A DNA stretch of 64,000 bases from Planctomycetota bacterium (lineage in GTDB: Bacteria > Planctomycetota > UBA11346): assembly GCA_016745075.1 (NCBI GenBank), contig JADGDD010000008.1, positions 10,678 to 74,677 of the forward strand, written 5' to 3'. A program made the translations under genes and the position numbers. How positions within the stretch are numbered: the stretch's first letter is position 1; every line of letters starts with the position of its first letter. The notes under the pieces were generated by a model that worked only from the letters and a program-made list of their open reading frames with translations, was not told the origin of the DNA and made no database searches. This document shows positions 4,559 through 47,722 of the stretch, in pieces.

Positions 4559-6913
4559 TTAGTTCAAAGTCCGTTCTAACACCTCTCTCTGAACCTTAGG
4601 CGGAAGCTCAACAAAACGTGCGGAAAAACCACCGACTCGTACAATAAGGTTCTGCCATTTCTCTGGTTCTTTCAGTGCAGCCTCAAGGTCTCCTTTGCCA
4701 ACGACGTTAATCATGGCTTGTGGTCCGCCAGAACGAAAATAGACGGCAAGTAGGGCTTCAAATTTTGTACGCGTTTTGGTGACAGTCTCTTTGGAAAATT
4801 TCATATTTTGAGTCGTGCCTGCATGGCAGTCTGTACGCAATGATAACAATGAATTCAAAAAGGCGGTTACGCCGGACTTGTCTGCACCAGGCTGAGGGTT
4901 GTTAGCATTAGCAAGATGATCCCAATCATATCGACCATCAGCAGAAGCCATGGTTTGGCTTCCCAATCCAACATTAGCCTGGTTATTGATCACAACAATT
5001 AAATAGGAAGCAAGCCCAATACGCTGCGCTTGTGCTGCTGTGCTTTCACAACAACGTTCGTGAATACAGGCGGCCATGGCATCTGCCTCTGTATGTTCAT
5101 TTCCATATTTTGGGACCGCTAGCAATTGTTGGCGTATATGTTCATGTCCTTCAAAGTTAACAGCGAGTGCAGACATCAATTCATCTGCACTGATTTTTTT
5201 CTGTTCATACACGAGGTGCTTTATTGCGAGGAGAGAGTCTGCGACGTTTATTTGCCCGTAGGATTCTAGCGTTCCCCCGAGGTGAGCCAAGCCACCATCA
5301 AACATACCTGCACCTGCTTCCAAGCAGTCATCATATAACAAACTCCAAAGTCCATAGGCGCAGTGGTCTGCTACAACTTTATACTCCAATGCCTGTTGAT
5401 CTGCGAGTAACTCTATCCAATAATCCATATTTTGGAAATACATCTTTAACAACTGATCAAAATCAGGGATGTCACGCAGCAAGGCACAAGCCGGCATGTA
5501 GGTTTTTCTCCCTGTATAGGGCTCGGTATTATTATGGAGCATGCATTCTAATATTTTGCTATGATTAAAAACACCAGACGGTGTGCCAAAGCTCTTTTTA
5601 TACAATACATATTCACCACAGCCATAGGGCACATACTGTTCTGCCCATTCTTCTGATACCTGAAATGCTTTTTGTACCGATGGTATATTAACATCATCGT
5701 TGTATAACATCGGGAAGGTGTGTCCTTCCGCGATACTATCCAAGGCATGACTATATAATTCTGGATCTTGGCCAGTATAAAAACGCAGAGACAATTGTGG
5801 AGCTGGCAAGCAAACACGTCTTGTTGCTTCTATGGCCACATGGGCAAAACGATTTGCTGCCTGCTCGTTACGTCGCCCTTTACCACCAATGATAATACGG
5901 TTATCGTAGGGCGCTCCATTATAGTTTATTATGTCCCAAAGGTTTGCACAAAGGTCTAGCGCTTCGGCTTCTGTTAATCGACCAGCTTCCAAATCAGCAA
6001 CAAGAAAATCCCCTAAATATTCATCCATTCGCCCCCATGAATACGTAGCAGAATACACACCATAGAGTAAGGTTAATTGCATCGCCTCATGTAAGGTTTG
6101 AGGAGCATTTTTTGTAATAGCAAGCAAAGCTGTGCGCATCTGCATGCATCCCAAGCGCTGCTGTTCGTCTATACACGTATGTGCGATTAAGCCCGCGTGC
6201 TCTGCTAATGCCACGGCGCAGGTTTTTATTCCATCGAGAGAAATAAGTAGGCCATCATACATGGCCACAGGCTCATTGGCCGCTTCAGCTCGCATTTTTC
6301 TGTGTTGCACATCTGCATATAAACCGGGTAATCCTTTTTTCATTAATTTATCATAGTCAAAGTGTGGGCCGGTATTGCGCACCAAAGGGTGGCCTACACT
6401 TGCTGCCTCCTTGAGAGACAAATTATTAATGGCAGGCATTTCTCGTTTCATTTCTGGAGTCAATGCCGCTTCAAATCGTGCACAGGTCGTTTCTGTTTCC
6501 CAAAAGTCTACAATACCTTGCAATTCTGTTCGTACCGCATCATCTGGCTGGAGGTCTTCTATTTTTTTGTCCAAAATATTTTTATGACAATAATATCCTG
6601 CACCAGGACCAGAGCCAGGACACAATGGTAGAAAACCCAATGCTGGAATGTGATGCTTGGCCGCATTCCATTTATACAATACCGCATCTACGCCCGGCGT
6701 TGCAATGCAGCGACCTGCTAACAAATCATTCGGTTTCACAGGAGATAAAGTTGCTGGATACTGTGCTGCTAGACAACGGGCTTCTCGAATCGCTTTATCT
6801 TCATCAATGTTCGCTTTATAGACAGCGGTGAACTGGCGTTCTACTTGGAATGCATCTTCACAAAATGGATGTACAGCATGCGTAGATACCGTGTATAATG
6901 GTGCGTTTGTCAT
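4559..6913 (-). CDS. Glycyl radical enzyme (pyruvate formate-lyase / PFL2 superfamily), substrate unknown
   Basis: 784 aa; C-terminal glycyl radical motif IVRVGGFSARFVELPPKVQREVLERT; mid-protein GCGE loop consistent with the thiyl-radical Cys/Glu site; RBS GAAGGA before ATG at 6913. Confidence 0.85.
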   Translation of the reverse strand: MTNAPLYTVSTHAVHPFCEDAFQVERQFTAVYKANIDEDKAIREARCLAAQYPATLSPVKPNDLLAGRCIATPGVDAVLYKWNAAKHHIPALGFLPLCPGSGPGAGYYCHKNILDKKIEDLQPDDAVRTELQGIVDFWETETTCARFEAALTPEMKREMPAINNLSLKEAASVGHPLVRNTGPHFDYDKLMKKGLPGLYADVQHRKMRAEAANEPVAMYDGLLISLDGIKTCAVALAEHAGLIAHTCIDEQQRLGCMQMRTALLAITKNAPQTLHEAMQLTLLYGVYSATYSWGRMDEYLGDFLVADLEAGRLTEAEALDLCANLWDIINYNGAPYDNRIIIGGKGRRNEQAANRFAHVAIEATRRVCLPAPQLSLRFYTGQDPELYSHALDSIAEGHTFPMLYNDDVNIPSVQKAFQVSEEWAEQYVPYGCGEYVLYKKSFGTPSGVFNHSKILECMLHNNTEPYTGRKTYMPACALLRDIPDFDQLLKMYFQNMDYWIELLADQQALEYKVVADHCAYGLWSLLYDDCLEAGAGMFDGGLAHLGGTLESYGQINVADSLLAIKHLVYEQKKISADELMSALAVNFEGHEHIRQQLLAVPKYGNEHTEADAMAACIHERCCESTAAQAQRIGLASYLIVVINNQANVGLGSQTMASADGRYDWDHLANANNPQPGADKSGVTAFLNSLLSLRTDCHAGTTQNMKFSKETVTKTRTKFEALLAVYFRSGGPQAMINVVGKGDLEAALKEPEKWQNLIVRVGGFSARFVELPPKVQREVLERTLN

Positions 6914-6916
6914 AAT

Positions 6917-7894
6917 TTATTTCCTTCTGTTTAATTTTATATAACGCCCACCAAGTAGCCATTCACTGATATACAGATTTCCATCTGCATCTGCGGTTAT
7001 GCCATGAGGGCTGTTTAGTATCCCTACTGGTAAATCAGGTGGTTGTAATTCATTCTTTTCATTAAGAGCATTGGGCCAGCCCGGACGTGATACACATTCT
7101 TTTCCATCTGCCAGAGTTGCTACTACCGCATTCTCTGCATCCAAAACGACTAACTGCGCACATAAATCGACTATAATCACATATGTTTCGACTTGAGCAA
7201 ATGCACTTGGGCTCCGAAATTCTTTATGGGTTATTACTGAGTGAAAACAACCCGTACTATCAAATATTTGGACGCGACCATTTCCTCTATCTGCCACATA
7301 GATCAAGGTCTGTTCTACTCTACGCGTATCAATCCAGACGCTATGCGGACAGGCAAAGAGACCTGCTCCTTCGCTACCATTTATACTGCACACATGCTGA
7401 CCGCTCGCACTGAGACAATGGACAACGCCATACCCATAGCCATCTGCTATCCATATGTGTCCAGTTTCTGTATCTACGGCTACGCCGGTTGGTTTAAATT
7501 GTGTGTCATCTGCACTGTACCCACAGTGTTCTGGACCAAAACGTTGGACCACCGCTCCCGTACCCGTACAGACAAGCACTTGACCAATACCATGTTTGGT
7601 TTCATCACCATCTTTATGACCAATATCCGCTACTAAAATGTAATTTTCATTTTCACTCCGCATACAGCATAAGGCGTGCGTTTCTACCACAGGTGCTGCA
7701 ATTTCAGCAACACGTAGAAGCTTTCCTGCGGGACTATAAAAAGACAAGACGGGATCATTAACATCACCAACGACAATCTCACCATCTGCGGTACAAGCCA
7801 TACCATGATGTGAAAAATATTCTGGTTTAGAGGGACGCTGACCCCAATTTTCTTGCCATTCAAAGTTCAGTGGTCCAGCTTGCAATTGAGTCAT
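6917..7894 (-). CDS. NHL-repeat six-bladed beta-propeller protein
   Basis: Repeated blade motifs such as YVADRGNGRVQIFD, HIWIADGYGYGVV, NLYISEWL; start ATG overlaps the upstream PhyH stop (ATGA). Confidence 0.6.
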   Translation of the reverse strand: MTQLQAGPLNFEWQENWGQRPSKPEYFSHHGMACTADGEIVVGDVNDPVLSFYSPAGKLLRVAEIAAPVVETHALCCMRSENENYILVADIGHKDGDETKHGIGQVLVCTGTGAVVQRFGPEHCGYSADDTQFKPTGVAVDTETGHIWIADGYGYGVVHCLSASGQHVCSINGSEGAGLFACPHSVWIDTRRVEQTLIYVADRGNGRVQIFDSTGCFHSVITHKEFRSPSAFAQVETYVIIVDLCAQLVVLDAENAVVATLADGKECVSRPGWPNALNEKNELQPPDLPVGILNSPHGITADADGNLYISEWLLGGRYIKLNRRK

Positions 7895-8697
7895 TGTTCA
7901 TGCCCTACTGCTTGCCCAATAAGCTTCTCTCGCCATGAATTGTTTATCTCATATGGCTGCGCATAGGTATTGCCCGCCTGATCTTCTCCACGTGCAAGGT
8001 AAATGCGAAAGTCGGGATCATTTTCGTGTTGCGTAAAATGACAATCCGCAGAAAAATATCTGAGCGTTAATCCACAACGACGAATCATACTCGTATTGGG
8101 ATTACTGCCATGAATAATTCGGCCATCATGAATAGAACAATGGTTCGGATCTAATTCAAAAGCAACAGCACTATCTTTATCAAAACTACCAGCATCAATT
8201 TCTTCAGCAAAAACCGCATCATCCTTTACAAGGTGATAATTATGATCTGCAAGCAGGTGACTACCTGGGATAACCTGCAAGCACCCATTTTCTTTGAGAG
8301 ACGGGTCTAAAGCCAGCCACACCGTACAGACCGAATCCATACGGTCCAGCATACCAGCCCAATACGCACTATCTTCATGCCATGGAATACGCCGACCCGT
8401 ACCTGCTGGTTTGGTGATGAAATGGGTAGTAAATAGAACAATATTTGGGCCAATCAATTGCTCTACCATATCTAAAACCGTATCATGCAATGCCCACCTG
8501 AATAATTCAGGGAAAAGAAAATGTGGTTTATCCATTTCTTCTGGACGGCCATTATAGATCTCTTTCCATTCTGTAGCGATAGATTCATGATAGCACTGTA
8601 AATCAGTAAAATCTTGCTCAGATAATAATGGTGCTGTTGGTACTATATAACCTTGTTTTTTATAGGCAGCACACTCAGCGGCAGATAAAATTGCCAT
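7891..8697 (-). CDS. Phytanoyl-CoA dioxygenase (PhyH) family Fe(II)/2-oxoglutarate-dependent oxygenase
   Basis: PWHEDSAYW (HxD iron ligands) and a downstream His in IIHGSNPN; ATG at 8697 preceded by AAGGAG (the listed ORF begins at an in-frame TTG at 8700). Confidence 0.75.
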   Translation of the reverse strand: MAILSAAECAAYKKQGYIVPTAPLLSEQDFTDLQCYHESIATEWKEIYNGRPEEMDKPHFLFPELFRWALHDTVLDMVEQLIGPNIVLFTTHFITKPAGTGRRIPWHEDSAYWAGMLDRMDSVCTVWLALDPSLKENGCLQVIPGSHLLADHNYHLVKDDAVFAEEIDAGSFDKDSAVAFELDPNHCSIHDGRIIHGSNPNTSMIRRCGLTLRYFSADCHFTQHENDPDFRIYLARGEDQAGNTYAQPYEINNSWREKLIGQAVGHEQ

Positions 8698-8826
8698 CAA
8701 ATCTCCTTTTCTTCTCTCATCATTATATGAGCCGATAAAAGGGAAATCCTGTCATATTGTGATGAAAAACGACCCTCTTGTGATGTTTGCTTGCCATTTT
8801 AACCTTCCGCACTATCTTTTCGTGAT

Positions 8827-9666
8827 ATGTCCATGCAATTATTTTGGGATGACATCTGCGAACACAGCCCTGGGAATATGCTCCGCTGTGCTCAAGGTTA
8901 TTACACACCTGGATACCGTTTTCAGCAGCACTATCATGACTTTGCTGAATTCTTTCTCATCACAGAGGGTGAAGGTTATCATTACTGCGATGGCCATCGA
9001 TCTCCCTTACGAGCATCTTCCTGCTGCTTTATTCACCCAGATTGTGAACATTCTCTGACCGCTTCTGAAGAGAGCAGCATGTCCATCATCAACGTGGCCA
9101 TAGCTCCTCAATTATGGACCCATATTCACGATCTCTATTTTGATACTGCACAAGACTGGTTTTGGAGCCGCTCCAAAGGTTGTTCTGTTCATCACGTTCC
9201 CGAACAGGCTCGGCGGTCATTTATGGATGCAGTCACTGAATTAGAACAAGACCACTCAAGTCGCCTAGCAGAAGATGCGCTCCTTTTGCATTTTATCAAT
9301 ACGTTCACCACGACCACCACACAAACAAATAGCAATAAAGCACCACAATGGCTACAAGAACTACTGCTGACCATGAACGAACCAAAATATTTCCAAGACA
9401 GCATGGAGGCTATGGTGCGCTTAAGCGAAAAAAGCAGAGAACATATTAATCGAAGTATTCGTACATACTATCAACAAACGGCCACTGAATATATGAATGG
9501 ATTACGCATGCGCTATTCCTGCCGTCGCTTGCTTGAAAGCACTGATAGCATCATGAAGATTGCTCTTGATTGCGGATTTGAATCTCAAGCCCATTTTTTT
9601 CGCCTCTTTAAAAAGACACACCACTGCACGCCACGACAATTTAGAATGACTCGTAAAGTTCTCTAA
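8827..9666 (+). CDS. AraC family transcriptional regulator (cupin-like N-domain plus C-terminal AraC HTH)
   Basis: C-terminal SCRRLLESTDSIMKIALDCGFESQAHFFRLFKKTHHCTPRQFR is a typical AraC-type HTH pair; divergent from the PhyH-NHL-GRE operon. Confidence 0.8.
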   Translation: MSMQLFWDDICEHSPGNMLRCAQGYYTPGYRFQQHYHDFAEFFLITEGEGYHYCDGHRSPLRASSCCFIHPDCEHSLTASEESSMSIINVAIAPQLWTHIHDLYFDTAQDWFWSRSKGCSVHHVPEQARRSFMDAVTELEQDHSSRLAEDALLLHFINTFTTTTTQTNSNKAPQWLQELLLTMNEPKYFQDSMEAMVRLSEKSREHINRSIRTYYQQTATEYMNGLRMRYSCRRLLESTDSIMKIALDCGFESQAHFFRLFKKTHHCTPRQFRMTRKVL

Positions 9667-9721
9667 ACCGTAGCAGTCACAACTTATTTCTTCATCACAC
9701 GCTATCCAAAGGGTTTCCTCT

Positions 9722-12700
9722 ATGCGTATTCTTACTCTCCTCTTTTTTCTCTGCGGATTATGCTCAGCTTCCGATTGGCCGATGCTCCTGCATGACATTC
9801 AACGAAGTGGCATCAGTGAAGAACAGCCAACATTTCCGTTACACCATAACTGGAGCTATCAACCACTACAGGCTCCAGTACCAGCATGGGACAAACCAGC
9901 TTTACAAGATTATTTTAATGGATTTTCTTCCATACACCACGCACAAGCTTTTAACCGCGCCTACCACAGTATCTGCGCAAATAATAAAGTTTTCTTTGCA
10001 TCGTCTGCTAATGATAGCGTTGTCTGCCTTGATGCTGCCAGTGGCAAAACATTGTGGGTAGCACTCACCAGTGGGCCTATTCGTCTACCACCAACCTTCC
10101 ATAAAGGCTCACTGTACTGTGGTTCTGATGATGGTTTTGTCTACTGCTTTGATGCTAACACTGGAGCACTCTTATGGCGTTCCTGTCCAAGTGCGACCAT
10201 TCTGGCGCAACGCCCCGCTTATTTGCCAGGCAATAAGCGCATTATTTCTCGCATGCCCGTGCGCACTGGTTTTATTATTGATACAGAACAACAAACGATT
10301 TATGGCCAATGTGGTTTATTCCCAGAAGAGAAGGTTATTGCCTTTCAACTTGATCTCAACACCGGAGCAGTTGTGAGCTCCACTCAGGCCAACGCCGCGG
10401 AAGGATCAGTAACACGTATTGGTGATGAAATCTATGCCTCACGTGGACGGAAAAGTTTTATGATTTCTGATAGAACAGGTAAAGAGGTTTTTAAAAGTAA
10501 TAAAACAAAAGGAGCAGGTGTTACCTCTGGCTACGGCACTCTTGCTCTTACTGGCGGTAATGAGCGGAAAGAGCTTATGCTCTTTGATACAGAGAATAAA
10601 AAAATACTTGCTATGTGTACAGGCCTACGCGGTTTATTACTGAAAGACACACTGTATCTCATAGATGGAGCAACCATACAATCTTACAAAATCGCTGATC
10701 TCATACGTTTCCATAAAGAATATAATGACGCTCTCAACGGACCAATTAAACTCACGTGGTCTGATAAAAGCGAGTTGAAAGCGCAACGCAATCTCCAAAT
10801 AGAAAATGCTGTTCTCTGGAAACAACCCTGCACTTCCACCACTGCACTTATTGCCTGCGGATCGACCATCATTACCGGAGCTCCACAGCACATCACGGCG
10901 TTCGACAGCAATACGGGAGCCGTACTCTGGGAGCAACAGGTAGACGGAACCCCCTATTCTCTCGCTTTTTCTCATGGACGTTTATTCGCAAGCATGGACA
11001 ACGGCCATACACTGTGCTTTTCAGCTCAGGATCAAGATCATATTCTTCAAACAGAACAACACGATATAACCGCATTTTCTCCTGTAGATTCCATACAGCA
11101 GTATACCACGAATATCATCAAAGAATCTCCACAGAGCAAAGGATATTGTGTTATTGTCAACCCGAGCACTTGTGAAATAGCTTATGATATTGCCACCCGT
11201 TCTGATATGCATGTACTTTGTCTCATCGATGATGAAGAAGCCTGCTTAACAGCTCAACAACAATTATTGCCGACCGGCTTATATGGCACTCGCATTCACT
11301 ACCTACGCGGATCACTGTCTACTGTTCATATTCAAGATTACATCGCCACGGTTATTGTTAGTGAACAAGCCCTCAGTGATGAGATAGAATCAGAAGCACT
11401 TCGTATTGTTCGCCCAGAAGGTGGAGTCATCTTATGCTTTAATACAAGCACTCCTGCAAACGATAATTGGACCCAACACTCGGATAAAAATATATCATAC
11501 AGCCGTTACCAACGAGGCACACTTGCTGACACAGGAAACTGGAGTCATGCCTATGGTGGACCAGAGGCCACCAGTTGCAGTAATGATGATACCGTTCATG
11601 GACAATTTGAACTGCAATGGTTTGGTGCGCCTGGCCCTGAAAAAATGAATGACCGCCATCACCGCCCAATGCCACCATTGTATGCTCAAGGAAAAATGTT
11701 TGTACTTGGAAATGAGTACCTTTACGGCGTTGATGCATACAATGGAACCATACTTTGGGAACGCCCCGTCCCTGGTTCACGCCGACTTGGTATTATGTAC
11801 GATACAGCCCCAATGATAGCGCATGATCACAGTCTTTTCCTTTCAATCGGAACATCTTGCATTCAGATAGATGCCAACACTGGGGCCACACAACAAGAAT
11901 TTACGCCGCCGCAGACGAATTCCTCCTGGGGGTTTGTTGACCGTTATCAACAACTCCTACTTGGCAGCAGCCAACACAGCAATGCCAGTCTGACAAAAGT
12001 TGGAAAAATCAATAAACTCATGGAGGCAGATAATAGACTTGTTGCCGTAAGCACTCATCTATTTGCCCTTGATCTCAAACATGCAACAAAGAAATGGGAT
12101 CATAATTCAGGGCTTATCGTTAATTCAACTATTGTTCGCAGCGCAAATACGCTCTGCTTTTTAGAATCACGAAATCCAGAGCTGATAACAACAGATGCTG
12201 GTAGATTTGAACTCAATCAACTTGCAGAAAATGCTTCTCTGTATTTTGTAGCTCTGGATATAGAAAACGGACAGGTGCTCTGGGAAAAACAGACCAATCT
12301 TCCTTACAATAATGTGTTCTTTCTGCAAATCGCCAATGATACCCTGCTCGCCAGCGGCTCATATAACCAAGACAAACGTCGTCACTATGGCATGAGTGCT
12401 CTTTCACTGACTGATGGCAGCACGCGTTGGTCTTCCAATTTTGATGAAGGGAAAAAAGGTGGATCACATGGCGAACAATGGCAACACCCTGCTATTGTTG
12501 GCGAAAACATTTATCTGATGCATCACATTATCAGCCTCACAACTGGTACACGTAGCCAAGAGGGTGAAGGTGGCAGGAAATGGCGCAAAGGACATGGCTG
12601 CGGTACTATTTCCATGTCTAACAATGCCATATTTTACCGTGGCCAATGTATTACTGACCTACAAACGTGGAACCAAGAACGCATCTTCCGCGGCAATAAA

Positions 12701-12826
12701 CCAGGCTGCTGGATCAACCTTATTCCCGCAGGTGGCCTCTTGCTGATGCCGGAAGCCAGTGCTGGTTGCTCTTGCTCTGTACAAGTGCAAACGTCTATGG
12801 CATTGCGACCAGTGGGTCACAAATAA
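9722..12826 (+). CDS. Secreted PQQ-like beta-propeller repeat protein (BamB/PQQ-repeat family), ~1034 aa, multi-domain
   Basis: N-terminal signal peptide MRILTLLFFLCGLCSA; recurring propeller motifs (DG.VYCFDANTGALLW, ITAFDSNTGAVLWE, LYGVDAYNGTILWE); central degenerate Rossmann-like segment; paralog of 27528-30551. Confidence 0.65.
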   Translation: MRILTLLFFLCGLCSASDWPMLLHDIQRSGISEEQPTFPLHHNWSYQPLQAPVPAWDKPALQDYFNGFSSIHHAQAFNRAYHSICANNKVFFASSANDSVVCLDAASGKTLWVALTSGPIRLPPTFHKGSLYCGSDDGFVYCFDANTGALLWRSCPSATILAQRPAYLPGNKRIISRMPVRTGFIIDTEQQTIYGQCGLFPEEKVIAFQLDLNTGAVVSSTQANAAEGSVTRIGDEIYASRGRKSFMISDRTGKEVFKSNKTKGAGVTSGYGTLALTGGNERKELMLFDTENKKILAMCTGLRGLLLKDTLYLIDGATIQSYKIADLIRFHKEYNDALNGPIKLTWSDKSELKAQRNLQIENAVLWKQPCTSTTALIACGSTIITGAPQHITAFDSNTGAVLWEQQVDGTPYSLAFSHGRLFASMDNGHTLCFSAQDQDHILQTEQHDITAFSPVDSIQQYTTNIIKESPQSKGYCVIVNPSTCEIAYDIATRSDMHVLCLIDDEEACLTAQQQLLPTGLYGTRIHYLRGSLSTVHIQDYIATVIVSEQALSDEIESEALRIVRPEGGVILCFNTSTPANDNWTQHSDKNISYSRYQRGTLADTGNWSHAYGGPEATSCSNDDTVHGQFELQWFGAPGPEKMNDRHHRPMPPLYAQGKMFVLGNEYLYGVDAYNGTILWERPVPGSRRLGIMYDTAPMIAHDHSLFLSIGTSCIQIDANTGATQQEFTPPQTNSSWGFVDRYQQLLLGSSQHSNASLTKVGKINKLMEADNRLVAVSTHLFALDLKHATKKWDHNSGLIVNSTIVRSANTLCFLESRNPELITTDAGRFELNQLAENASLYFVALDIENGQVLWEKQTNLPYNNVFFLQIANDTLLASGSYNQDKRRHYGMSALSLTDGSTRWSSNFDEGKKGGSHGEQWQHPAIVGENIYLMHHIISLTTGTRSQEGEGGRKWRKGHGCGTISMSNNAIFYRGQCITDLQTWNQERIFRGNKPGCWINLIPAGGLLLMPEASAGCSCSVQVQTSMALRPVGHK

Positions 12827-12978
12827 CTTCTCCATCTGGTAAGATCAATTCATAGAGAGGAAATAGAGTCAGAAAGAGCACTACACGTTTATTTTTTCTA
12901 AGCCTCCTTTTATTTCAGTATTGAGCTGCACAAAGAACTCTCTACTAGACCTTTTCTAAGGCTTGTCAGAATATCAGC

Positions 12979-14853
12979 ATGACCGATATGATGAACGCAC
13001 TCAAGGAAGGCTGGGGCTATGATAGCTTTCGGCCTTTGCAGAAAGATGCAGTGGAAGCTGCGCTTTCTGGAACTGATTGCCTCGTCATTTTACCTACTGG
13101 TGGCGGGAAAAGCCTCTGTTATCAGTTACCGGCTGCCTGTGGTATCGGCCTTGTCATGGTCGTATCTCCACTGATTGCCTTAATGGATGACCAAGTTGCA
13201 TCTGCACGTGATTCCGGCATTATTGCCGCTGCCTTGCATTCCAACTTGCCTGCTGCTGAAAAACACAGTGCTATGCAAGCCATTAGCGATGGCAGCCTGC
13301 AATTACTCTACATTAGCCCAGAACGTTTATCGCTTGGTGATATTATTGGTCAAATTTCTGACCGTCTTGGTTTAATTGCCGTAGATGAAGCCCACTGTAT
13401 TTCGCATTGGGGTCATGACTTCCGACCTGAATACCGGATGCTGGCACAAATATTTAATCGCGTACCCACCGTTCCGCGTATGGCCCTTACCGCCACCGCT
13501 ACTCCACATGTGCAACGTGATATTTGTGTGCAAGTGCCGCTACGTGATGAAATCCATTTATTGGGCCATCCAGATCGCCCCAATTTAATTTACCGCGCCT
13601 TGCCAAGAAAAAATGCTATTAAACAAATGATGTCCATCATAGAACGACACCCCAATGAAGGTGGTATTGTCTATGCACAAACTCGCAAAGAGGTAGAGCG
13701 TATTACCTCCTCTCTTGATGGTCATGGTGTTGGTTGTGCTGGCTATCATGCAGGCATGCCTGCACGCACGCGACAAAAAGTTCAAATGGATTTCGTCAAT
13801 GAGCGCGTTGATGTCGTTGTTGCCACCATTGCTTTTGGCATGGGTATAGATCGCTCCAATGTACGCTACGTTATTCACGCAAATTACCCGCGCAGTATTG
13901 AACATTACCAACAAGAATCTGGACGGGCTGGACGTGATGGCTTAAATGCCGAATGCGTGTTACTGCATAGCTACGCCGATATTGTGATGCACCGTCGTCT
14001 CTCCACTATGGACGGGCCGCTCAGCCCCGAACGACAGCAAGCTTTAGATCAGCAGTTATCTGGAGTAACTCGTTACGCAAGCTCTCCAGTCTGCCGTCAT
14101 CGTCTACTGACTGAACACTTTGGTGAAACGTATTCCATTCCTGAAGGTAATGATTTACAAAAGGGTTGTGGCGCTTGTGATGTATGTCTTGCGGAAACCA
14201 TTGAGCTAGACGCAACAGAAGCTGTTGAAGTTGCCCAAAAAATAATATCCGCAGTCTGGCGTTGCCAAAATCGTTTTGGTGCTGGACACGTTACGGACGT
14301 ATTGATTGGTCGAGATACCGAAAAAATTCGCCGCGCCCAACATGATGAGCTCTCTGTCTTTGGATTACTACGCTTAGAGGGCGATACCTCCGTGCGGTTC
14401 TGGATAGACCAGCTCATCATGCAAGATTTACTCACCGTTATTCCGAATGATGGCTACCCGCTGCTGGCTATTTCCGAACAAGGTAAAGCACTCTGTAAAG
14501 GTGATGGCAGCGTCCGTCTTGGCCAAGTGCAAAAACCAACGAAAAAGAAAAAGTCCAGCGCTGGCAAAGCCCCCGCCGACAACAGCGTGGAGTGGGAAGA
14601 CGTGGACCGCGAACTCTACGAACAACTCCGCGACCTACGCAAATACATCGCCGAAGACATCAACAAACCACCATATATTATTTTCTCCGATGCTTCTCTC
14701 CGCGACATGGCCCGCGAACTACCAGCCAATCGCATAGACATGCTTGCCGTCAAAGGTGTGGGGGATCACAAACTCGAAAAATACGGAGCATCTTTTCTCG
14801 CCTGTATCTCCGGCGAATCTGTTGAAGAAGCGTTTGAGATATTTAAGGCATAA
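12979..14853 (+). CDS. recQ: ATP-dependent DNA helicase RecQ
   Basis: Walker A ILPTGGGKSLCYQLPA, DEAH box LIAVDEAHCISHWGHDFRPEY, Zn-binding/RQC region, C-terminal HRDC domain. Confidence 0.9.
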   Translation: MTDMMNALKEGWGYDSFRPLQKDAVEAALSGTDCLVILPTGGGKSLCYQLPAACGIGLVMVVSPLIALMDDQVASARDSGIIAAALHSNLPAAEKHSAMQAISDGSLQLLYISPERLSLGDIIGQISDRLGLIAVDEAHCISHWGHDFRPEYRMLAQIFNRVPTVPRMALTATATPHVQRDICVQVPLRDEIHLLGHPDRPNLIYRALPRKNAIKQMMSIIERHPNEGGIVYAQTRKEVERITSSLDGHGVGCAGYHAGMPARTRQKVQMDFVNERVDVVVATIAFGMGIDRSNVRYVIHANYPRSIEHYQQESGRAGRDGLNAECVLLHSYADIVMHRRLSTMDGPLSPERQQALDQQLSGVTRYASSPVCRHRLLTEHFGETYSIPEGNDLQKGCGACDVCLAETIELDATEAVEVAQKIISAVWRCQNRFGAGHVTDVLIGRDTEKIRRAQHDELSVFGLLRLEGDTSVRFWIDQLIMQDLLTVIPNDGYPLLAISEQGKALCKGDGSVRLGQVQKPTKKKKSSAGKAPADNSVEWEDVDRELYEQLRDLRKYIAEDINKPPYIIFSDASLRDMARELPANRIDMLAVKGVGDHKLEKYGASFLACISGESVEEAFEIFKA

Positions 14854-14887: not shown

Positions 14888-15766
14888 TTACAGAGACGAC
14901 ACTTGCAATTGTTGGCGATAGGACTTTGGCGTTTGCCCCACTTCTTTTTTGAAGATCCGAGAAAAATAATTACTGTCATTGAAACCACTCGCAAAAGCGA
15001 TCTTGGTAATACTGTCATTCGTTGTGGTTAATAATGCTTTTGCATGATTAAGACGTAAGCGATTCAGGTACATAATGGGGGTCACACCATAGTCTGATTT
15101 GAAACGACGAATAAATTGATTAACAGATAAATGAGCTGCATCTGCTAACTCCGCCAAAGAAATATCTCTGCTGTATTCGCTTTCAAGGAGGGCAACGCTT
15201 TCTGCTAAAGCCATTAACGGGTTTGCCTCTGAATTTTCTTCTGAAAAGATACTACAAAGTTCAACAATTAACCGTTGCATCGCAGCAACTTTCCTTGCCT
15301 GAGGTGCTTGCGTGTGCCGAATAGGTTCAGTGAGATCGACACAGAGCGGCTTGATCATTTTCAATTGTTGAGCACTTAGTCTTAAACGATTATAATTACG
15401 TTCCTGTTCTCGATACACTGGCTCCAAAATAAAAAGCGCATGATAACCAGACAATGCAGTAAGATCATAGGTGTGTGCTTGTAACCACGTTGGTAAAAAC
15501 ATGCAGTTAATGATTTCCATATCCCGTGAATGGGCAAAGCCATGTACTTGCCCTGGCGCTATTGCAAAAACATCTCCGGCAGCAATCGGCACTAGGCCCC
15601 ACTCCGTTTGATGTTGGCCACTACCACGACAAACGATAACCAATTCGCTAAAATCATGGCGGTGAATGGGGTAATCATCACGCGGAAAACGCCAAAAGGA
15701 AGCTTGCACCGGAGCTGCTGGATGAAGCCCCTGTTTCTCTAAAGCAATAGTCGGAATCTGATGCAT
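14888..15766 (-). CDS. AraC family transcriptional regulator (cupin plus HTH)
   Basis: C-terminal LSVNQFIRRFKSDYGVTPIMYLNRLRLNHAKALL...ITKIAFASGFNDSNYFSRIFKKEVGQTP; divergent from the PhyH/URO-D-like operon. Confidence 0.85.
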   Translation of the reverse strand: MHQIPTIALEKQGLHPAAPVQASFWRFPRDDYPIHRHDFSELVIVCRGSGQHQTEWGLVPIAAGDVFAIAPGQVHGFAHSRDMEIINCMFLPTWLQAHTYDLTALSGYHALFILEPVYREQERNYNRLRLSAQQLKMIKPLCVDLTEPIRHTQAPQARKVAAMQRLIVELCSIFSEENSEANPLMALAESVALLESEYSRDISLAELADAAHLSVNQFIRRFKSDYGVTPIMYLNRLRLNHAKALLTTTNDSITKIAFASGFNDSNYFSRIFKKEVGQTPKSYRQQLQVSSL

Positions 15767-15864: not shown

Positions 15865-16620
15865 ATGCCAGCACTCACGAAAGCTCAGATAACGGATTAC
15901 CATGAACATGGTTTTGTTATGCTGGGAAAAATTATGGATGATGCAACCTTAGATGTCATTCGCTCAGAAGAGCAGAGGCTCATGGCAACCGTTGGTTCTG
16001 CCCATGATGAAGATCTTGCTAACCGCAGTGTCTTCATTTCTTTATGCCACCATCATAGTGCTGCGTTTCGTAACGTTGCCACGCAAGGGCCACACCTTGA
16101 TGCGGTAGAACAAATTGTTGGCGAAGACTTCTTACTATGGTACACGCAGTTTGTTATAAAACATCCAGACACGGGGGATGCTAAGAGTGAGTTTCCGTGG
16201 CATCAAGATAATGGCTATGGCGCAATTACTCCCGATAATAACGTAACAGTTTGGATTGCTCTTGATGACGTGACCGAAGAAAACGGATGCGTATGGGTTG
16301 TGCCCGGCAGTCATAAACAGGGGCTACTTGACCATCAGAAAAAAAATGACTCATGGCATTTACATTTAGACGTCGAGACCGATGGTATTCCTGCCATTAT
16401 GAAAGCAGGCGAAGCGGTGATGTTTAGTGGATTAACCCTGCACCGTTCAAAATTAAATCACACGAATGCTCCACGCCGCGCTATGTTTATGGAATACGCA
16501 CATGCCAGTAGTCACTTAATTGAAGATCAGCAAGCACTTATCCATAAATCTCACACATGGATGGTACGTGGACAATTGCCCCTAGACATTCCCAATCAAG
16601 CACCGGAGACACAATCATGA
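15865..16620 (+). CDS. Phytanoyl-CoA dioxygenase (PhyH) family Fe(II)/2OG oxygenase
   Basis: FPWHQDNGYG (HxD), VVPGSHKQG, GLTLHRS; RBS AAGGAA upstream of ATG 15865. Confidence 0.75.
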   Translation: MPALTKAQITDYHEHGFVMLGKIMDDATLDVIRSEEQRLMATVGSAHDEDLANRSVFISLCHHHSAAFRNVATQGPHLDAVEQIVGEDFLLWYTQFVIKHPDTGDAKSEFPWHQDNGYGAITPDNNVTVWIALDDVTEENGCVWVVPGSHKQGLLDHQKKNDSWHLHLDVETDGIPAIMKAGEAVMFSGLTLHRSKLNHTNAPRRAMFMEYAHASSHLIEDQQALIHKSHTWMVRGQLPLDIPNQAPETQS

Positions 16621-17678
16621 CATGCACTCAAACACCCGTTGAGGAGATGCAAAAACGTATTCTCCATGCTTACGACCATCCAGATGAGCAAGCCTGTTTT
16701 TATAGTGGTAATGTAGAACGCACCGGTAGTACCCGCTTAGATCATCTACCCTATTGGGACTGGAGTTGCCAACCTGCCCGCTCTGTCCCAAGCAATACGA
16801 CTTGCCTTTTTCCACTCGCACTGAATTGCCCACAAATACACACCACCGAAGGGAAACTATGGGTCAATCCAATTTTTGAAGACGAGGACGAAGAAGATTT
16901 TATTCTGGAACTGCCAGATATACGTAGCGGTTTTGGCGACACCATTTTACAAGAAATGGCGACAATGGCTCGTGATTTACCCGCGGGTGAAACCATACGT
17001 GAAGTTGATATTCAATCCTCACTGGGCATTGCTGAACTCGTCTGTGGGCAAAATTTGTATATAGCCTTACTAGAAGAACCTGAAGCCATCAAAAAAATGC
17101 TCACACGCATTACTGATTTCGTTATTGATTTTGTTCACGAAATGCGCCGTGTTTGTGGACCACGTTTAAACGGTGCAGGCTTTCCTTTTATTTGGTCAGA
17201 CCAACACAGCACGCTTGTCAGTGATGATACACTGACCTTAGTTTCTCCACAGCAACATCTGGAATTTAGTCTCCCGTACGTGAATCAATTTGCTGATGCC
17301 TGCGGCCCCATTCATTACCATTCTTGCTCATGGTATGAACGCTTTTTTGATAATATTAAACAAGTCCGTAATGTCCGCACCTATAATTGGAATACCGGTA
17401 ACAGCGACGATCCACATCATATTATTCGAGAGTTTTCTGGACGAGCTGTACTCGCGCCACACATCTGTAAAGATATGCATCTCAGCAACGATGTTGCTCG
17501 TTGGGGCCATTCTTTCTCCGACGAAGTAGATCTACTCAGCTATGTGTTAGATGGCATGCTCGATAATACCAGCTTTCATTTCTGGCTTGGTGAATTTGAT
17601 GAGAAGCCAGATGTACTTGAACGGATGTATGATATTTTGCATGAACGAGGGTACTCACCACAAGCACAACTCGGCTAA
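16617..17678 (+). CDS. Uroporphyrinogen decarboxylase (URO-D)-like family protein, function unknown
   Basis: Fold-level similarity to URO-D/MtaA-like proteins and to the paralog at 46534-47562; ATG 16617 overlaps the PhyH stop (ATGA) with GGAG 8 nt upstream, so the listed start at 16557 is rejected. Confidence 0.55.
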   Translation: MTCTQTPVEEMQKRILHAYDHPDEQACFYSGNVERTGSTRLDHLPYWDWSCQPARSVPSNTTCLFPLALNCPQIHTTEGKLWVNPIFEDEDEEDFILELPDIRSGFGDTILQEMATMARDLPAGETIREVDIQSSLGIAELVCGQNLYIALLEEPEAIKKMLTRITDFVIDFVHEMRRVCGPRLNGAGFPFIWSDQHSTLVSDDTLTLVSPQQHLEFSLPYVNQFADACGPIHYHSCSWYERFFDNIKQVRNVRTYNWNTGNSDDPHHIIREFSGRAVLAPHICKDMHLSNDVARWGHSFSDEVDLLSYVLDGMLDNTSFHFWLGEFDEKPDVLERMYDILHERGYSPQAQLG

Positions 17679-27527: not shown

Positions 27528-30500
27528 CTACTGCACACACAATACCGATCCGTTTTGCAAAGCGACGAAAAGACGATCTCCACAGGCACTTAAACCATCC
27601 ACTACAGGCATTGCTGGCAAGGGCTGACTCCACTGCTCTGCTCCGCTCGTACTATTAAAAGCTGTTAATACAAATTGTGGGTCGTCATTGCCTCCTACTT
27701 GATGGGCACTCACAACCGTACTGCGACAAAGCAACAATGCCATGCTATTGTGTCCCTTCACTTCCCATACACGTAGCGCATCTTCATCTTTTTCCTGTTT
27801 ATCAAAATAATACCCAGACACCGCTTTTTTAGCCGATTGTTTACCACGGTAACGTGCCACGAATTGCTCTGTATCCCAACAAATAAGACGGTGGTTGGTA
27901 TTTTGTGTGCCACCAGACCCCATACGGATGAAAAAACGTTCATTCCAAACAGGAGGAATACGAGAAATTTCTGGAATACGAAATTCTTTACTGATCCCCG
28001 CTTCATCGGTCATAAACACATGTAACCCATTATTAACAACCGCATGTGTTGTTTCCATATGTAACATCCGTCCACCATGAATAATAATACCGTCGGCAAT
28101 ACGCCCAACAAAAGAACCGCCCGTTCTATAAGATCTCAGACGCTTATCCCATTGTGTTTTTTTGATACGACCATCGGCAAGCGCAACATGGAGAGGCTCA
28201 CTTCCTGCACCGCTAGCAAACACTGCATATTCACCATCACGACAAGCACCACCTTGGTTATGAGCTGCTTCTGGTAAACGTACCGCCCAGTTATGCTGAC
28301 CGGTTTGAATATCCAAACTCACTGCATAAACCCCATCGAATGCAAGCATGCCGCAACTTGTTACAACTGAATTTTCCGTGACAATCAGCGGCCCCATTAT
28401 TGGCCAGGTATCAATAAGTTGACCGTAATAAGGTATCCGTCGTTCTTGTGGTGTAAGCTGTGTCCGCCAAACAATCACACCTGTTTCTAAGCAACGCGCA
28501 CTGACAAAACCATCACTTGATCCAGCAATAACTAAACCTTGTGTTATATGCGGTGCCACAAAATAAGGCGAGCGTTCTTGTTTCTGCCAGACTACCGAGC
28601 CATCATCTGGCTGCACACGTCTTATGCTGCCATCTGTACCGCAAATAAAGACCGCTGTTGCTGTTGGTGTAACAAATAACCGAACATCGTTTGCTTCTGC
28701 TTGATAGACCCACTGCTGTTTTCCTTCAGCACAGATACTATCGTAAAATCCATTGCGATCTGTATGTCCACGCACAGCCGCAGGTGCAGGTGCACTCTGA
28801 TTATTTTTTGCAGATCCACCTGCACGCGTTACCGGAACATATGTTTCTGGAACCGTACTCGGAAATGCTCCACGTGCCGTCCACGCGCTCATTTCTTGTG
28901 AACATGAACAATCCATCGGTACACGCACCAACAAACCGCCAGCTGGTAACTCTCCATCCCAGCAATTCGAGCGTGACCATCGACTAAATAACGTTTCTCC
29001 AGTAACCACATTATATTGTTTACTAGCGCCATTCAGCATCCAATCACCAACCGCTGTGATACGTGAACAACCTCGCCCACCAAACTTTACTTTCTCTTGA
29101 ATAAGTGTTCCGTCTGCTGCATTGATAAGTACATTTTCGCCACGTTCTTTCTTCGGATGAGCAATCTTTGTGAGCAATCCATTTTTTGTCGCAAGAATAT
29201 GTATACTAAACTGACTCTTCTTCGGTTTTTCATAACTCCATATTTCTGCCCCAGTCTCTGGGTGAAAAGCTATAATATGACGACGTGCAGGAATTTCTAA
29301 AACATAGGCATCATCCATAAGCAGTGAGGCAGGTGTTGTCATCATCTTTTCACCAATGTGCACTTCATCAATGCGTTCAACAACAGCTGTATCCCTATTA
29401 CGCCAGCGCTCTGCCCCGGTGTTCGCATCAAGAGAGACAATCGATCCACCAACAGTATAATAACACATAATATTATTACGTAGTGCGCAGGTACGTGCAT
29501 CAATTGGCTTCTCTTCTTGTTTTTCCCACAATACGTTTCCATCTCGTACAGCTATAATCCGAAAACCAAAAACATGTTCTATCATACCCGTGACACGGTT
29601 TTCCCAACTAGGGCATTGAGCCAAAGTACCTTTATGCTCACCCGCATAGCGAACTGTTTTCACTGGTTCATCTGCTGGTCCTGCTAAAAGATACATGGTA
29701 TCATCTACGACCACCATCCATTTCAGGCTTTCACTTTCTTTACCATAGGTCCACGTTTGCAGCGTTTTTCCTGTTTCTGGTTCTATATCCTCAACTACAC
29801 CATCATGCATATAATAAAAATGATCAGGCTGGGCCACATACGCACTACGATGAACCTGCGTTCCTTTTGGAAGATCTCTCTGCCATAAAACAGTACCGTT
29901 ATACAAACTGCGAGCAGTTAATTTATAGAGATAGTTCCATTCACGTTTATGATCTGCACCCCAGCCAGTTGCTGTAAATATTCTACCGCCAGATATGGTA
30001 CTGGTAATGCCGGCTGGCTGATGGGCTGGGCCGCTAATCCACTGAAACGCACCTTTCAAACTCACCCGTTGATCTTCTGAAACATTATTATTATCTGGGC
30101 CGTGCTGCCAATGACTCCAATCATCTGCACCTTCTAAGGCCGGCTTACGAATAAGCGTATGAGTAGCTCCCTTAATAGCGACGACACGAGACCACGTTTT
30201 ATATTCAGGTGGTACAGTTGCCTGACCCGCCACCACCAGCGCCCCAAAGGGAGCAACCACCTGCATGGCCGCTGTCCATGGCACTGAAGCAGGGTCTGCG
30301 CAATAGACTATATCAATTAAATTTTCACCATAGGGCAACGAGCTGCCCTCAAACAATTCCAATAGGATTCCATCTGTATTTTGTAATTGCGTGACAAGAC
30401 TTTTTTCAGTCGCTGAGGAGCAGACAACAAGTCCACGTTGTTTGCCAACCGTTTGCAATAAAGCATCTGCCTCTACTGCTTCCACAGCATTCCAACACAG

Positions 30501-30551
30501 AAAAAGACAACAGACACTGAGCAGATACGACATACACGTAAAGGTTCTCAT
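27528..30551 (-). CDS. Secreted PQQ-like beta-propeller repeat protein, ~1007 aa (paralog of 9722-12826)
   Basis: Signal peptide; shared blocks with the paralog (ADDWSHWQHGPD vs TGNWSHAYGGPE; CWDGELPAGGLLVRVPMDCSCS vs CWINLIPAGGLLLMPEASAGCSCS); multiple propeller blades. Confidence 0.65.
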   Translation of the reverse strand: MRTFTCMSYLLSVCCLFLCWNAVEAVEADALLQTVGKQRGLVVCSSATEKSLVTQLQNTDGILLELFEGSSLPYGENLIDIVYCADPASVPWTAAMQVVAPFGALVVAGQATVPPEYKTWSRVVAIKGATHTLIRKPALEGADDWSHWQHGPDNNNVSEDQRVSLKGAFQWISGPAHQPAGITSTISGGRIFTATGWGADHKREWNYLYKLTARSLYNGTVLWQRDLPKGTQVHRSAYVAQPDHFYYMHDGVVEDIEPETGKTLQTWTYGKESESLKWMVVVDDTMYLLAGPADEPVKTVRYAGEHKGTLAQCPSWENRVTGMIEHVFGFRIIAVRDGNVLWEKQEEKPIDARTCALRNNIMCYYTVGGSIVSLDANTGAERWRNRDTAVVERIDEVHIGEKMMTTPASLLMDDAYVLEIPARRHIIAFHPETGAEIWSYEKPKKSQFSIHILATKNGLLTKIAHPKKERGENVLINAADGTLIQEKVKFGGRGCSRITAVGDWMLNGASKQYNVVTGETLFSRWSRSNCWDGELPAGGLLVRVPMDCSCSQEMSAWTARGAFPSTVPETYVPVTRAGGSAKNNQSAPAPAAVRGHTDRNGFYDSICAEGKQQWVYQAEANDVRLFVTPTATAVFICGTDGSIRRVQPDDGSVVWQKQERSPYFVAPHITQGLVIAGSSDGFVSARCLETGVIVWRTQLTPQERRIPYYGQLIDTWPIMGPLIVTENSVVTSCGMLAFDGVYAVSLDIQTGQHNWAVRLPEAAHNQGGACRDGEYAVFASGAGSEPLHVALADGRIKKTQWDKRLRSYRTGGSFVGRIADGIIIHGGRMLHMETTHAVVNNGLHVFMTDEAGISKEFRIPEISRIPPVWNERFFIRMGSGGTQNTNHRLICWDTEQFVARYRGKQSAKKAVSGYYFDKQEKDEDALRVWEVKGHNSMALLLCRSTVVSAHQVGGNDDPQFVLTAFNSTSGAEQWSQPLPAMPVVDGLSACGDRLFVALQNGSVLCVQ

Positions 30552-30553
30552 TA

Positions 30554-31567
30554 TTATTTCTCCGTCAGTAATCGAGGTGGAATGAGATGCAGACAGGCTG
30601 GACCTTTGTCTCCACGCATTCGTTGTAATAAACGTTTGGCACCAATCCGCGCCATATCCGCGATGGGATATTCTAAAGCAAAACAGTGGTCCGGCCTATT
30701 TGTTGGCAATTCGACAACACCTGTTGTTAACGATACAATAGTCACACCATATATATCATGTTGCGTACATAAATCATGCAGCTGAGTGGCCAATGTATCT
30801 GTTGGACAAATAACTGCTTCCAAATCTTCTTCACTGAGCCACTGCCGTAAGAGATTACTATCGTCTTTTCTGAACCAATGATTATGAGGCGTAGTCACTA
30901 CCACCGGTTTTTTCTGCTGCATAAGCATACCCGTAATAGCCCCTGCTTGCCGAGCGATAAATGATGGATCATGAGCCACACTTTCTACAGATGGGCCAGC
31001 AAAACCAATTCGCTCATAGCCTTGTCGATATAACTCCTCACAAGCTTGCCGAGCAACAGCATTATCATCTACCGTGACACTATCATACACACCATGATGA
31101 TTGAGGCCAAGACAAACAACGGGAGTAGTTAACCCTGCTTCCAGATCTGGGATCACACCGGTAAAATACAGCATACCATCTGCGGCATTCATCTCATCTC
31201 TGTCTGGCACATACGGTAACAAAAAGACCTCATAGCCCTGTTGCTGAAACCATGTACGCACTGTGTTAAAACAGAGGGCGACAACTTGACCGACATGACT
31301 CTCTGGAATGGAGACCAATACCCGCCCTGTGTACACTTTTTCATCCCGCACAAAATACCCACTACGTGGACGGCTCTCAATCAGTCCTACTTCTATGAGT
31401 TGTTGTAAGCCTGTAACCACTTCATGCTGGGTGGCACCATACTGCTCTCGCAGACCTGGTATAGACAAAAGCTTATCACCAACAGCTAAATCACCTCTTC
31501 CAATACGAGCACGCACATCCTTCACAAGCTGGCGTTGGCTATCACGAACACGATCTGTCATAACCAT
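30554..31567 (-). CDS. Transcriptional regulator with GntR-type N-terminal HTH and LacI/periplasmic-binding-protein-like C-terminal domain
   Basis: N-terminal GDKLLSIPGLREQYGATQHEVVTGLQQLIEVGLIESRPRSGYFV; ~270-aa sugar-binding-like C-domain; stop 3 nt from the downstream propeller gene start. Confidence 0.7.
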   Translation of the reverse strand: MVMTDRVRDSQRQLVKDVRARIGRGDLAVGDKLLSIPGLREQYGATQHEVVTGLQQLIEVGLIESRPRSGYFVRDEKVYTGRVLVSIPESHVGQVVALCFNTVRTWFQQQGYEVFLLPYVPDRDEMNAADGMLYFTGVIPDLEAGLTTPVVCLGLNHHGVYDSVTVDDNAVARQACEELYRQGYERIGFAGPSVESVAHDPSFIARQAGAITGMLMQQKKPVVVTTPHNHWFRKDDSNLLRQWLSEEDLEAVICPTDTLATQLHDLCTQHDIYGVTIVSLTTGVVELPTNRPDHCFALEYPIADMARIGAKRLLQRMRGDKGPACLHLIPPRLLTEK

Positions 31568-47562: not shown

Positions 47563-47722
47563 CTTCAGAGCTCCTATCAGGAAAGATATTTCTATAAGGC
47601 GAGCGGCTTTGCTCATCATACATTTTACCTGCACTCCCTTTATGATCAACAAAAAGTACAAGAGATGATCGTTTCTGATCAAAAGCATTGACCCCAAGCA
47701 TTTTATCAGCAAGGATAGTACA

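Follow-up and report, generated by a model that had tools for sequence, protein, structure and literature searches.

A methyltransferase-fold domain without its SAM-binding motif, set between two beta-propellers, in a putatively exported protein family of Planctomycetota and other phyla

Introduction

Class I methyltransferases hold S-adenosylmethionine (SAM) by two well-defined elements: the glycine-rich loop of motif I (E/D-x-G-x-G-x-G) contacts the methionine/ribose part of the cofactor, and the acidic residue ending the second strand (beta2) hydrogen-bonds the ribose hydroxyls. In animal fatty acid synthase (FAS), a pseudo-methyltransferase domain acts as a structural element. The Planctomycetota, Verrucomicrobiota, Kiritimatiellia and Lentisphaerota play a major part in the breakdown of complex polysaccharides, often sulfated, in the sea and in the gut, and many of their exported proteins have no assigned function. 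We analysed here a stretch of 64,000 nucleotides (hereafter the window) from a Planctomycetota bacterium of the lineage UBA11346 (GenBank assembly GCA_016745075.1, contig JADGDD010000008.1, positions 10,678 to 74,677 of the forward strand), and in particular the gene p1 (9722..12826, plus strand) and its paralog p2, whose products combine two beta-propellers with a degenerate methyltransferase-fold domain. An original prediction, made from the letters of the window, had described p1 as a giant secreted beta-propeller protein with an embedded methyltransferase-like segment. The folds, the architecture (under automatic names) and the pseudoenzyme concept are already known; the permuted paralog pair and the graded decay of the motifs reported below are undescribed in the literature that we searched.

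Results

The p1 gene is a complete open reading frame (ORF) of 1034 codons plus stop, at the coordinates initially given for it, and encodes in order a signal peptide, propeller A, a pseudo-methyltransferase domain and propeller B. A protein identical to p1 is already recorded in public assemblies (P0001), where its contigs reach 182 kb. The two peptides quoted in the original prediction are both present, GYCVIVNPSTCEIAYDIA from residue 474 and RIVRPEGGVILCF from residue 561; the word giant was an overstatement for a protein of 1034 residues. Read by eye, the N-terminus shows the n-, h- and c-regions of a Sec-type signal peptide (residues 1-17, 9722..9772, plus strand; MRILTLLFFLCGLCSA followed by SDWPML), with a basic MR n-region, a hydrophobic stretch of 12 residues and small side chains at positions -3 and -1 (CSA before SDW). 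The mature N-terminus of the homologs aligns at (A/S)DWP, and the signal-peptide stretch has a low predicted local distance difference test score (pLDDT) in the AlphaFold model. No lipobox was read in the N-terminus of p1, LFFLC and LCGLC both misfitting L-[AS]-[GA]-C. The proposed secretion of the protein is in agreement with this signal-like N-terminus and with the homolog alignment, on the basis of a reading and not of a predictor; p1 would be exported by the Sec pathway and be periplasmic or exposed at the surface.

The central domain extends over residues 456-597 (11087..11512, plus strand). In the AlphaFold model it has a pLDDT of 93 and adopts the class I SAM-methyltransferase (Rossmann-like) fold, an alpha/beta fold with a seven-stranded sheet, whose elements follow the order b1-aA-b2-aB-b3-b4-aD-b5-b6-b7 and end in the b6-b7 hairpin that characterizes class I. 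The segment had been placed at nucleotides 11130-11450 (residues 470-577); the location was right, but the predicted domain is wider. When the isolated segment (residues 434-639) was compared with Pfam, no match was obtained even at E <= 10, and a phmmer search of the segment against the PDB had the putative methyltransferase 3dlc as its only hit, at E 0.57, a value without significance by itself. Since the segment is silent in Pfam and weak in the PDB, its homology had to come through family profiles. A search of 5.8 billion proteins returned collinear homologs of p1 with 24-32% identity and a coverage of 97-100%, many of which carry Pfam Methyltransf_25, Methyltransf_11 or Methyltransf_31 at the aligned position; in P0020 and P0008 these matches reach 42.7 and 46.6 bits, respectively, for a curated cutoff of 27, and they align to residues 460-575 of p1. 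A hidden Markov model (HMM) made from eight homologs with Pfam-recognised methyltransferase domains, p1 being left out, matches p1 residues 463-571 with 48 bits (E 4e-11 for a nominal 1e6 sequences). The domain-family profile finds 3dlc in the PDB at E 5e-16, together with RebM, TleD and a glucose O-methyltransferase. The Rossmann-like fold suspected for this segment is therefore borne out by a high-confidence model and by homology to bona fide methyltransferase domains.

The SAM site of this domain is lost. At b1 the family consensus is (E/K)GYCL(D/V)LGCGxGxLA and the p1 counterpart is KGYCVIVNPSTCEIA; motif I of p1 (residues 474-484, GYCVIVNPSTC; 11141..11173, plus strand) reads V-I-V-N-P-S-T-C, with NPSTC at the position of GxGxG and none of the three glycines of the consensus GYCL(D/V)LGCGxG. 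At the end of beta2 (residues 499-504, LCLIDD; 11216..11233, plus strand), Ile502 occupies the ribose-binding acidic position, where D or E is found in 60 of 80 family domains, and the family-conserved D504 is kept. The loss of the glycine-rich loop, noticed earlier from p1 itself, is confirmed by the family alignment, and the beta2 acidic residue is gone as well. Because all three motif-I glycines and this acid are lost, the p1 domain cannot act as a canonical methyltransferase, and we consider it very probable that it is a non-catalytic domain derived from a methyltransferase. Family residues that do not belong to the SAM site are retained in p1, namely G474, the AGLYGxR loop and the R..RPxGG strand.

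The decay of the motifs is graded within the family. A census was made on 80 domains, p1 and 79 GTDB loci (locus-level counts and L-numbers in this work cover the best 80 of at least 569 GTDB loci). Three glycines and the acid are kept in 24 domains, two glycines and the acid in 23, and one glycine and the acid in 13; another 17 keep one to three glycines without the acid, and the last three, including p1, have neither glycine nor acid. The closest relatives of p1 (44-46% identity in propeller B) are also degenerate, with DCDDG, DFGNG, GKNVL, NDETG and NFDKG. The mean pairwise identity across the family is 36% for the methyltransferase-like domain versus 40% for the propellers, a nearly equal conservation that speaks for a structural constraint on the domain; in p1 this domain is the most diverged of the three, with 24% identity to the family. 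At the other end of the series, about 30% of the family have canonical GxGxG and the beta2 acid (e.g., P0020, L058, L059 and L068), and the members examined begin with a signal peptide.

On both sides of the central gap, Pfam recognises on p1 only propeller repeats of the BamB/PQQ type, PQQ_2 (PF13360) scoring 99.9 bits for a cutoff of 27.6. Propeller A (residues ~18-445; 9773..11056, plus strand) is BamB/PQQ-like and probably eight-bladed according to Pfam PQQ_2, the DSSP assignment of the model and Foldseek; the same assignment delimits a helical hairpin insert in it (residues 324-362; 10691..10807, plus strand). Propeller B (residues 600-1034; 11519..12823, plus strand) is PQQ-like from Pfam, the AlphaFold model and family conservation. 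The top Foldseek matches for the p1 model are BamB (3q7m, E 1.9e-17, TMt 0.74, normalised to BamB) and BamB chains in BAM complexes, and 8-bladed designer propellers match at TMt 0.78-0.79. Comparison of the full-length model with the PDB gave propeller matches only, and no solved structure with this architecture. BamB itself, tried as an equivalog, was rejected (TIGR03300 65.1 bits versus a cutoff of 285; PRK11138 39.4 versus 423).

Propeller B carries signatures of its own, the conservation of which was measured among 79 family members. The junction motif G-N-W-S-H-A-Y-G-G-P-E-A-T-S-C-S-N-D (residues 605-622; 11534..11587, plus strand) joins the methyltransferase domain to the propeller, and in it W607 and D622 are conserved at 100% and H609 at 92%. 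The motif G-H-G-C-G (residues 957-961; 12590..12604, plus strand) holds C960, and the C-terminal signature K-P-G-C-W-I-N-L-I-P-A-G-G-L-L-L-M-P-E-A-S-A-G-C-S-C (residues 993-1018; 12698..12775, plus strand) holds C996, C1016 and C1018; these four cysteines are conserved at 100% and, with C713, also invariant in the family, make five conserved cysteines. The polar residues D622, R645, H646, N674, R973 and N999 are invariant in the family, and E1011 is conserved at 90%. Such a conservation of polar and cysteine residues, between 90 and 100%, is hard to reconcile with a passive blade scaffold. It suggests that propeller B carries a ligand, metal or active site, in which case the role of p1 may go beyond that of a passive scaffold.

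The paralog p2 (27528..30551, minus strand; 1007 residues) is composed of a signal peptide, a methyltransferase remnant, propeller B and propeller A, so that the domain order is permuted: A, methyltransferase, B in p1 and methyltransferase, B, A in p2. BLASTP gave two non-collinear alignments, p1 557-1022 with p2 93-554 (E 9e-16) and p1 78-432 with p2 600-1005 (E 2e-15). Propeller B of p2 (residues 140-556; 28884..30134, minus strand) presents D-W-S-H (W145, H147) and four cysteines, C495, C530, C548 and C550, which are the equivalents of p1 C960, C996, C1016 and C1018. Propeller A (residues 596-1007; 27531..28766, minus strand) was delimited by the BLASTP alignment to p1 78-432 and by Pfam, and the remnant (residues ~36-112; 30216..30446, minus strand) by comparison with p2-type orthologs. 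The latter possess 27 residues that are missing from p2, corresponding to aB, the AGxYGxR motif and b3. Their N-terminal domains align with intact methyltransferase domains with an hhalign probability of 98.7% (E 3.4e-16). The p2-type proteins form a sizeable lineage, in which some members retain Pfam methyltransferase matches. The p2 remnant is at a later stage of decay than the p1 domain.

A single block common to both paralogs had been described. This block is real and family-specific (W-S-H, GxGC, (P)xCW..(I/L)PAGGLL and C-S-C-S), and the paralog alignment, together with the conservation in 79 members, places the similarity beyond generic propeller blades; the sharing is nevertheless wider, since it concerns all three domain types, in permuted order. 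The permutation, the truncated methyltransferase remnant of p2 and the existence of a large family with many intact motifs had all escaped the original prediction. A junction of the form R-G-x-L-x-G-x-G-x-W-T/S-H is conserved in both paralog lineages. As the methyltransferase fold directly precedes propeller B in both of them, these two domains make up a conserved unit and propeller A is the movable part.

The survey of this architecture across genomes revealed a large existing family. Two DNA patterns drawn from conserved family motifs, one of them PGCW[IV]N[AML][IL][PV], were scanned against 185,579 GTDB species genomes; at least 599 stretches matched, and 569 of the 599 encode relatives, giving at least 569 loci. 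The matches of p1 in the 80 best loci span residues ~1-1030, and the best species-genome relatives share 31-34% identity with it. A HMMER search with propeller B over 1.84 billion representatives gave 748 clusters (50% identity) at E <= 1e-30 and 1533 at E <= 1e-10, and the full-length collinear homologs of p1 have E values from 1e-68 to 1e-157. Most of the members listed belong to the Planctomycetota (Pirellulales, Phycisphaerae, Sedimentisphaerales); the further hosts listed are Verrucomicrobiota, Kiritimatiellia, Victivallales, Armatimonadota, Hydrogenedentota, Omnitrophota, 'Zipacnadia', Aminicenantes and Bacteroidota, the last with a cultured member, Puteibacter caeruleilacunae JC036. The automatic names given to the family in databases are 'methyltransferase domain-containing protein', 'PQQ-binding-like beta-propeller repeat protein' and 'BamB'. 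One of the best matches, with 33% identity over the full length, is carried by a contig of a metagenome-assembled genome named 'Candidatus Bathyarchaeia archaeon' (L005, DATKVG010000043.1); this archaeal assignment could result from horizontal transfer or from a binning error.

Many homologs are fused to carbohydrate-binding modules (CBMs): Malectin and CBM96 at the C-terminus of P0008, Laminin_G_3 at the N-terminus of P0003, and CHB_HEX_C in P0011. In the gene neighbourhoods, sulfatases occur within 6 kb in 10 of the 80 loci and GFO/IDH/MocA oxidoreductases near the family gene in seven, these counts being raw and not corrected for background. In a Victivallales locus (L069), the family gene is preceded by a GFO/IDH/MocA oxidoreductase, a HEAT-repeat protein and two sulfatases, and followed by a heparinase II/III-like lyase, another sulfatase and a beta-helix protein. 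Elsewhere, an AraC regulator and a DUF4838 protein adjoin the family gene (L038), and an aldose epimerase lies nearby (L033). Genes of the URO-D family (uroporphyrinogen decarboxylase / methylcobamide methyltransferase-like) are present in 7 of the 80 loci (e.g., L002, L004 and L068), 20 bp downstream of the family member in L002 and L004, and the window has a copy at 46534-47838 (minus strand); this linkage may be due to chance or be real.

In the window, a gene for an AraC-family regulator (AraC_binding/cupin and HTH_18; 8827..9666, plus strand) ends 55 bp upstream of p1 on the same strand, and it is possible that it regulates p1 or is co-transcribed with it. In a scan of 8600-13100 for promoters and terminators, the counts were within chance, with nothing above chance between the AraC gene and p1. 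The gene of a regulator with a GntR helix-turn-helix and a sugar-binding type Peripla_BP_3 domain (30554..31567, minus strand) precedes p2 on the same strand, with 3 bp between its end and p2, and the two probably form one operon. The p2 gene is convergent with a DUF4886 gene, and p1 and p2 are 15 kb apart.

Other features of the window were recorded beside these genes. Two modules, each made of an AraC gene and a PhyH (phytanoyl-CoA dioxygenase family) gene, flank the p1-recQ pair: PhyH at 7891..8700 (minus strand) with the AraC gene at 8827-9666 (plus strand), and AraC at 14888..15766 (minus strand) with PhyH at 15865-16620 (plus strand), followed by a weak URO-D-like ORF (16557-17678). The minus-strand string 4559-8700 associates a glycyl-radical enzyme (PFL-like, 784 residues), an NHL-repeat protein (325 residues) and PhyH, which is an unusual combination beside the AraC gene. 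A protein of 1523 residues encoded at 49943-54514 (minus strand) contains POR_N, PFOR_II and POR domains (pyruvate:ferredoxin oxidoreductase, PFOR) and several 4Fe-4S ferredoxin motifs. The presence of the glycyl-radical enzyme, of rubrerythrin and of a PFOR-like gene suggests an anaerobic host. At 55284-56519 (plus strand), NuoB (Oxidored_q6) and NuoC (Complex1_30kDa) are joined in a single ORF, with which a complex I cluster (55284-63703) begins; in this cluster, about 100 nt are shared by the ORFs 60192-62198 and 62093-63703, one TTG start being probably miscalled.

Discussion

Taken together, these data lead us to propose that p1 and its relatives form an uncharacterised family of exported proteins, made of two BamB/PQQ-like propellers and a class I methyltransferase-fold domain, in which the dead domain of p1 accompanies a glycan-related function outside the cytoplasm. 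We give this combined reading a probability of roughly 0.55. The methyltransferase-derived domain would most likely be a rigid element, either structural or in contact with a ligand, by which propeller B is positioned, and the binding or scaffold role suggested by the original prediction would be reasonable for this domain. The functional site would most likely be found in propeller B, around D622, R645-H646, N674, R973, N999, E1011 and the five cysteines. The family would bind or process complex, possibly sulfated, glycans, and in the window expression would probably be under the control of the sugar-type regulator next to each gene, which is AraC in the case of p1 and GntR/Peripla_BP_3 in that of p2. 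The glycan-related part of the proposal comes from the CBM-type fusions, the nearby sulfatases, the lyase and the sugar-type regulators; taken by itself it is tentative, with a chance slightly under one half.

Several observations weigh against this proposal. Sulfatase, GFO/IDH/MocA and AraC genes are very abundant in genomes of the Planctomycetota-Verrucomicrobiota-Chlamydiota (PVC) group, and the neighbourhood signal could be partly due to chance; the immediate neighbours of p1 are RecQ, PhyH and a glycyl-radical enzyme, not glycan-degradation genes. The export of p1 was judged by eye only. A purely structural role of the domain leaves unexplained the apparently intact SAM sites of about 30% of the family, which are found in putatively exported proteins. 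No functionally characterised member was found among the database relatives, and nothing on the family turned up in the literature, whether on propeller and methyltransferase combinations in Planctomycetes or on methyltransferases that are periplasmic or secreted. Finally, in about 12 of the 80 loci, belonging to several phyla, the family gene shares an operon with the genes of an FtsX permease, of an ABC ATPase and of a lipoprotein-like protein of ~400 residues (L003, L010, L024, L032, L034, L039, L044, L062, L074 and L076 among them; 3762-12414 in L024), a linkage that points to an envelope machine more than to a glycan enzyme.

This last observation favours a different explanation, in which the propellers would be protein-protein platforms comparable to BamB. 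Proteins of the p1 and p2 types, which may form a heteromer, would dock on an FtsX/ABC transporter of the MacB kind and on a lipoprotein anchored in the membrane, and the assembly or export of an envelope component would follow; the dead domain would be a spacer. The ~400-residue partner ('cluster 1') possesses a C-terminal transmembrane anchor and a DCECGLD motif and has no Pfam match; the genes of these operons often overlap by 4 bp, and some of the loci contain a p2-type gene. A p2-type gene adjoins the p1-type gene in L003, L010, L024, L061 and L063, and a partial one does so in L012. The top structural matches of p1, which are BamB chains of BAM complexes, and the matches to TIGR03300 and PQQ_2 go in the same direction. 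However, p1 is far below the BamB equivalog cutoff and has no lipobox, and the window does not contain the partners of such a machine: tblastn gave no match to the cluster-1 protein in the window, no FtsX-type permease is present among its annotated ORFs, and p1 and p2 are separated by 15 kb. Moreover, this explanation does not account for the carbohydrate-binding modules fused to many homologs, and the invariant polar and cysteine residues of propeller B resemble rather a ligand or active site. We regard it as unlikely, while being the best placed of the alternatives.

A second possibility is that the central domain is still active, with a non-canonical mode of SAM binding, and methylates an extracytoplasmic substrate, for instance a glycan kept in place by the propellers. 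The fold is complete and predicted with confidence, p1 retains D504, R561 and RPxGG, and homologs keep the canonical SAM motifs. Against this stand the replacement of the three motif-I glycines and of the beta2 acid by N-P-S-T-C and Ile502, the silence of the Pfam methyltransferase models at E <= 10, the divergence of this domain, the highest in p1, and the Sec signal peptide. To our knowledge there is no supply of SAM outside the cytoplasm. In the literature on periplasmic and secreted methyltransferases, no bacterial periplasmic SAM methyltransferase was found. We consider continued activity of the p1 domain very improbable. A periplasmic quinoprotein oxidoreductase with propellers of the PQQ-dependent dehydrogenase type can hardly be retained, in spite of a Pfam PQQ match (PF01011, 46.6 bits) and of PQQ alcohol dehydrogenases among the Foldseek matches, because this match covers ~80 of 595 model positions, BamB-like propellers without PQQ score higher, the dehydrogenase models were rejected (TIGR03075 37.2 bits versus a cutoff of 480; TIGR03074 18.6 versus 833) and the genome looks anaerobic.

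Returning to the proposal of a dead domain in a glycan-related protein, a bolder extension of it can be formulated. The methyltransferase-fold and propeller-B unit, with its invariant Asp/Arg-His/Asn/Glu residues and its cysteine cluster, would form the core, for catalysis or capture, of a new and uncatalogued extracytoplasmic glycan-active family distributed in Planctomycetota, Verrucomicrobiota, Kiritimatiellia, Lentisphaerota and their relatives, in which p1- and p2-types are paired and the ~30% of members with intact motifs might methylate outside the cytoplasm. This extension is speculative, and we hold it to be rather improbable. If the site of propeller B is catalytic, the family would represent a new class of glycan-active proteins; if p1 is only a scaffold, it would be a well-documented but ordinary case of domain decay. 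The family offers a natural series that runs from intact to fully degenerate methyltransferase domains within one architecture and in two domain orders, and thereby a clean system for tracing the passage of an enzyme domain to a structural pseudoenzyme.

The comparison with known systems summarizes what is common and what is particular in p1. With its database relatives, such as TKJ33524.1 from Planctomycetes bacterium B3_Pla (P0017), p1 shares the collinear architecture, the signal peptide and the invariant motifs, the identity with the named relatives being 24-33% over 97-100% of the length; many of these relatives differ from p1 by a Pfam-detectable methyltransferase with GxGxG and by an added Malectin, CBM96 or Laminin_G_3 domain. 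With BamB, p1 has in common PQQ_2 above the cutoff in both propellers, an eight-bladed fold, probable export and a first strand of the D-W-P type. It departs from BamB by having no lipobox, two propellers per chain, an inserted methyltransferase-fold domain and, in propeller B, the family-specific W-x-H and C...CW...C-x-C signatures. With the class I SAM methyltransferases (Methyltransf_25/11; PDB 3dlc, 2yqz and RebM 3bus), fold and homology are common, whereas the p1 domain is flanked by two propellers, belongs to a probably exported protein and is not detected by Pfam. The nearest parallel for the fate of the domain is PsiME of animal FAS, listed as a pseudo-methyltransferase (PMC10258763). 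As in p1, the methyltransferase fold is kept in a multidomain protein after the loss of catalysis. The comparison is one of fold, in unrelated protein contexts, one being part of a cytosolic megasynthase and the other of a putatively exported propeller protein, and, unlike FAS PsiME, the p1 family contains intact and degenerate versions of the domain side by side.

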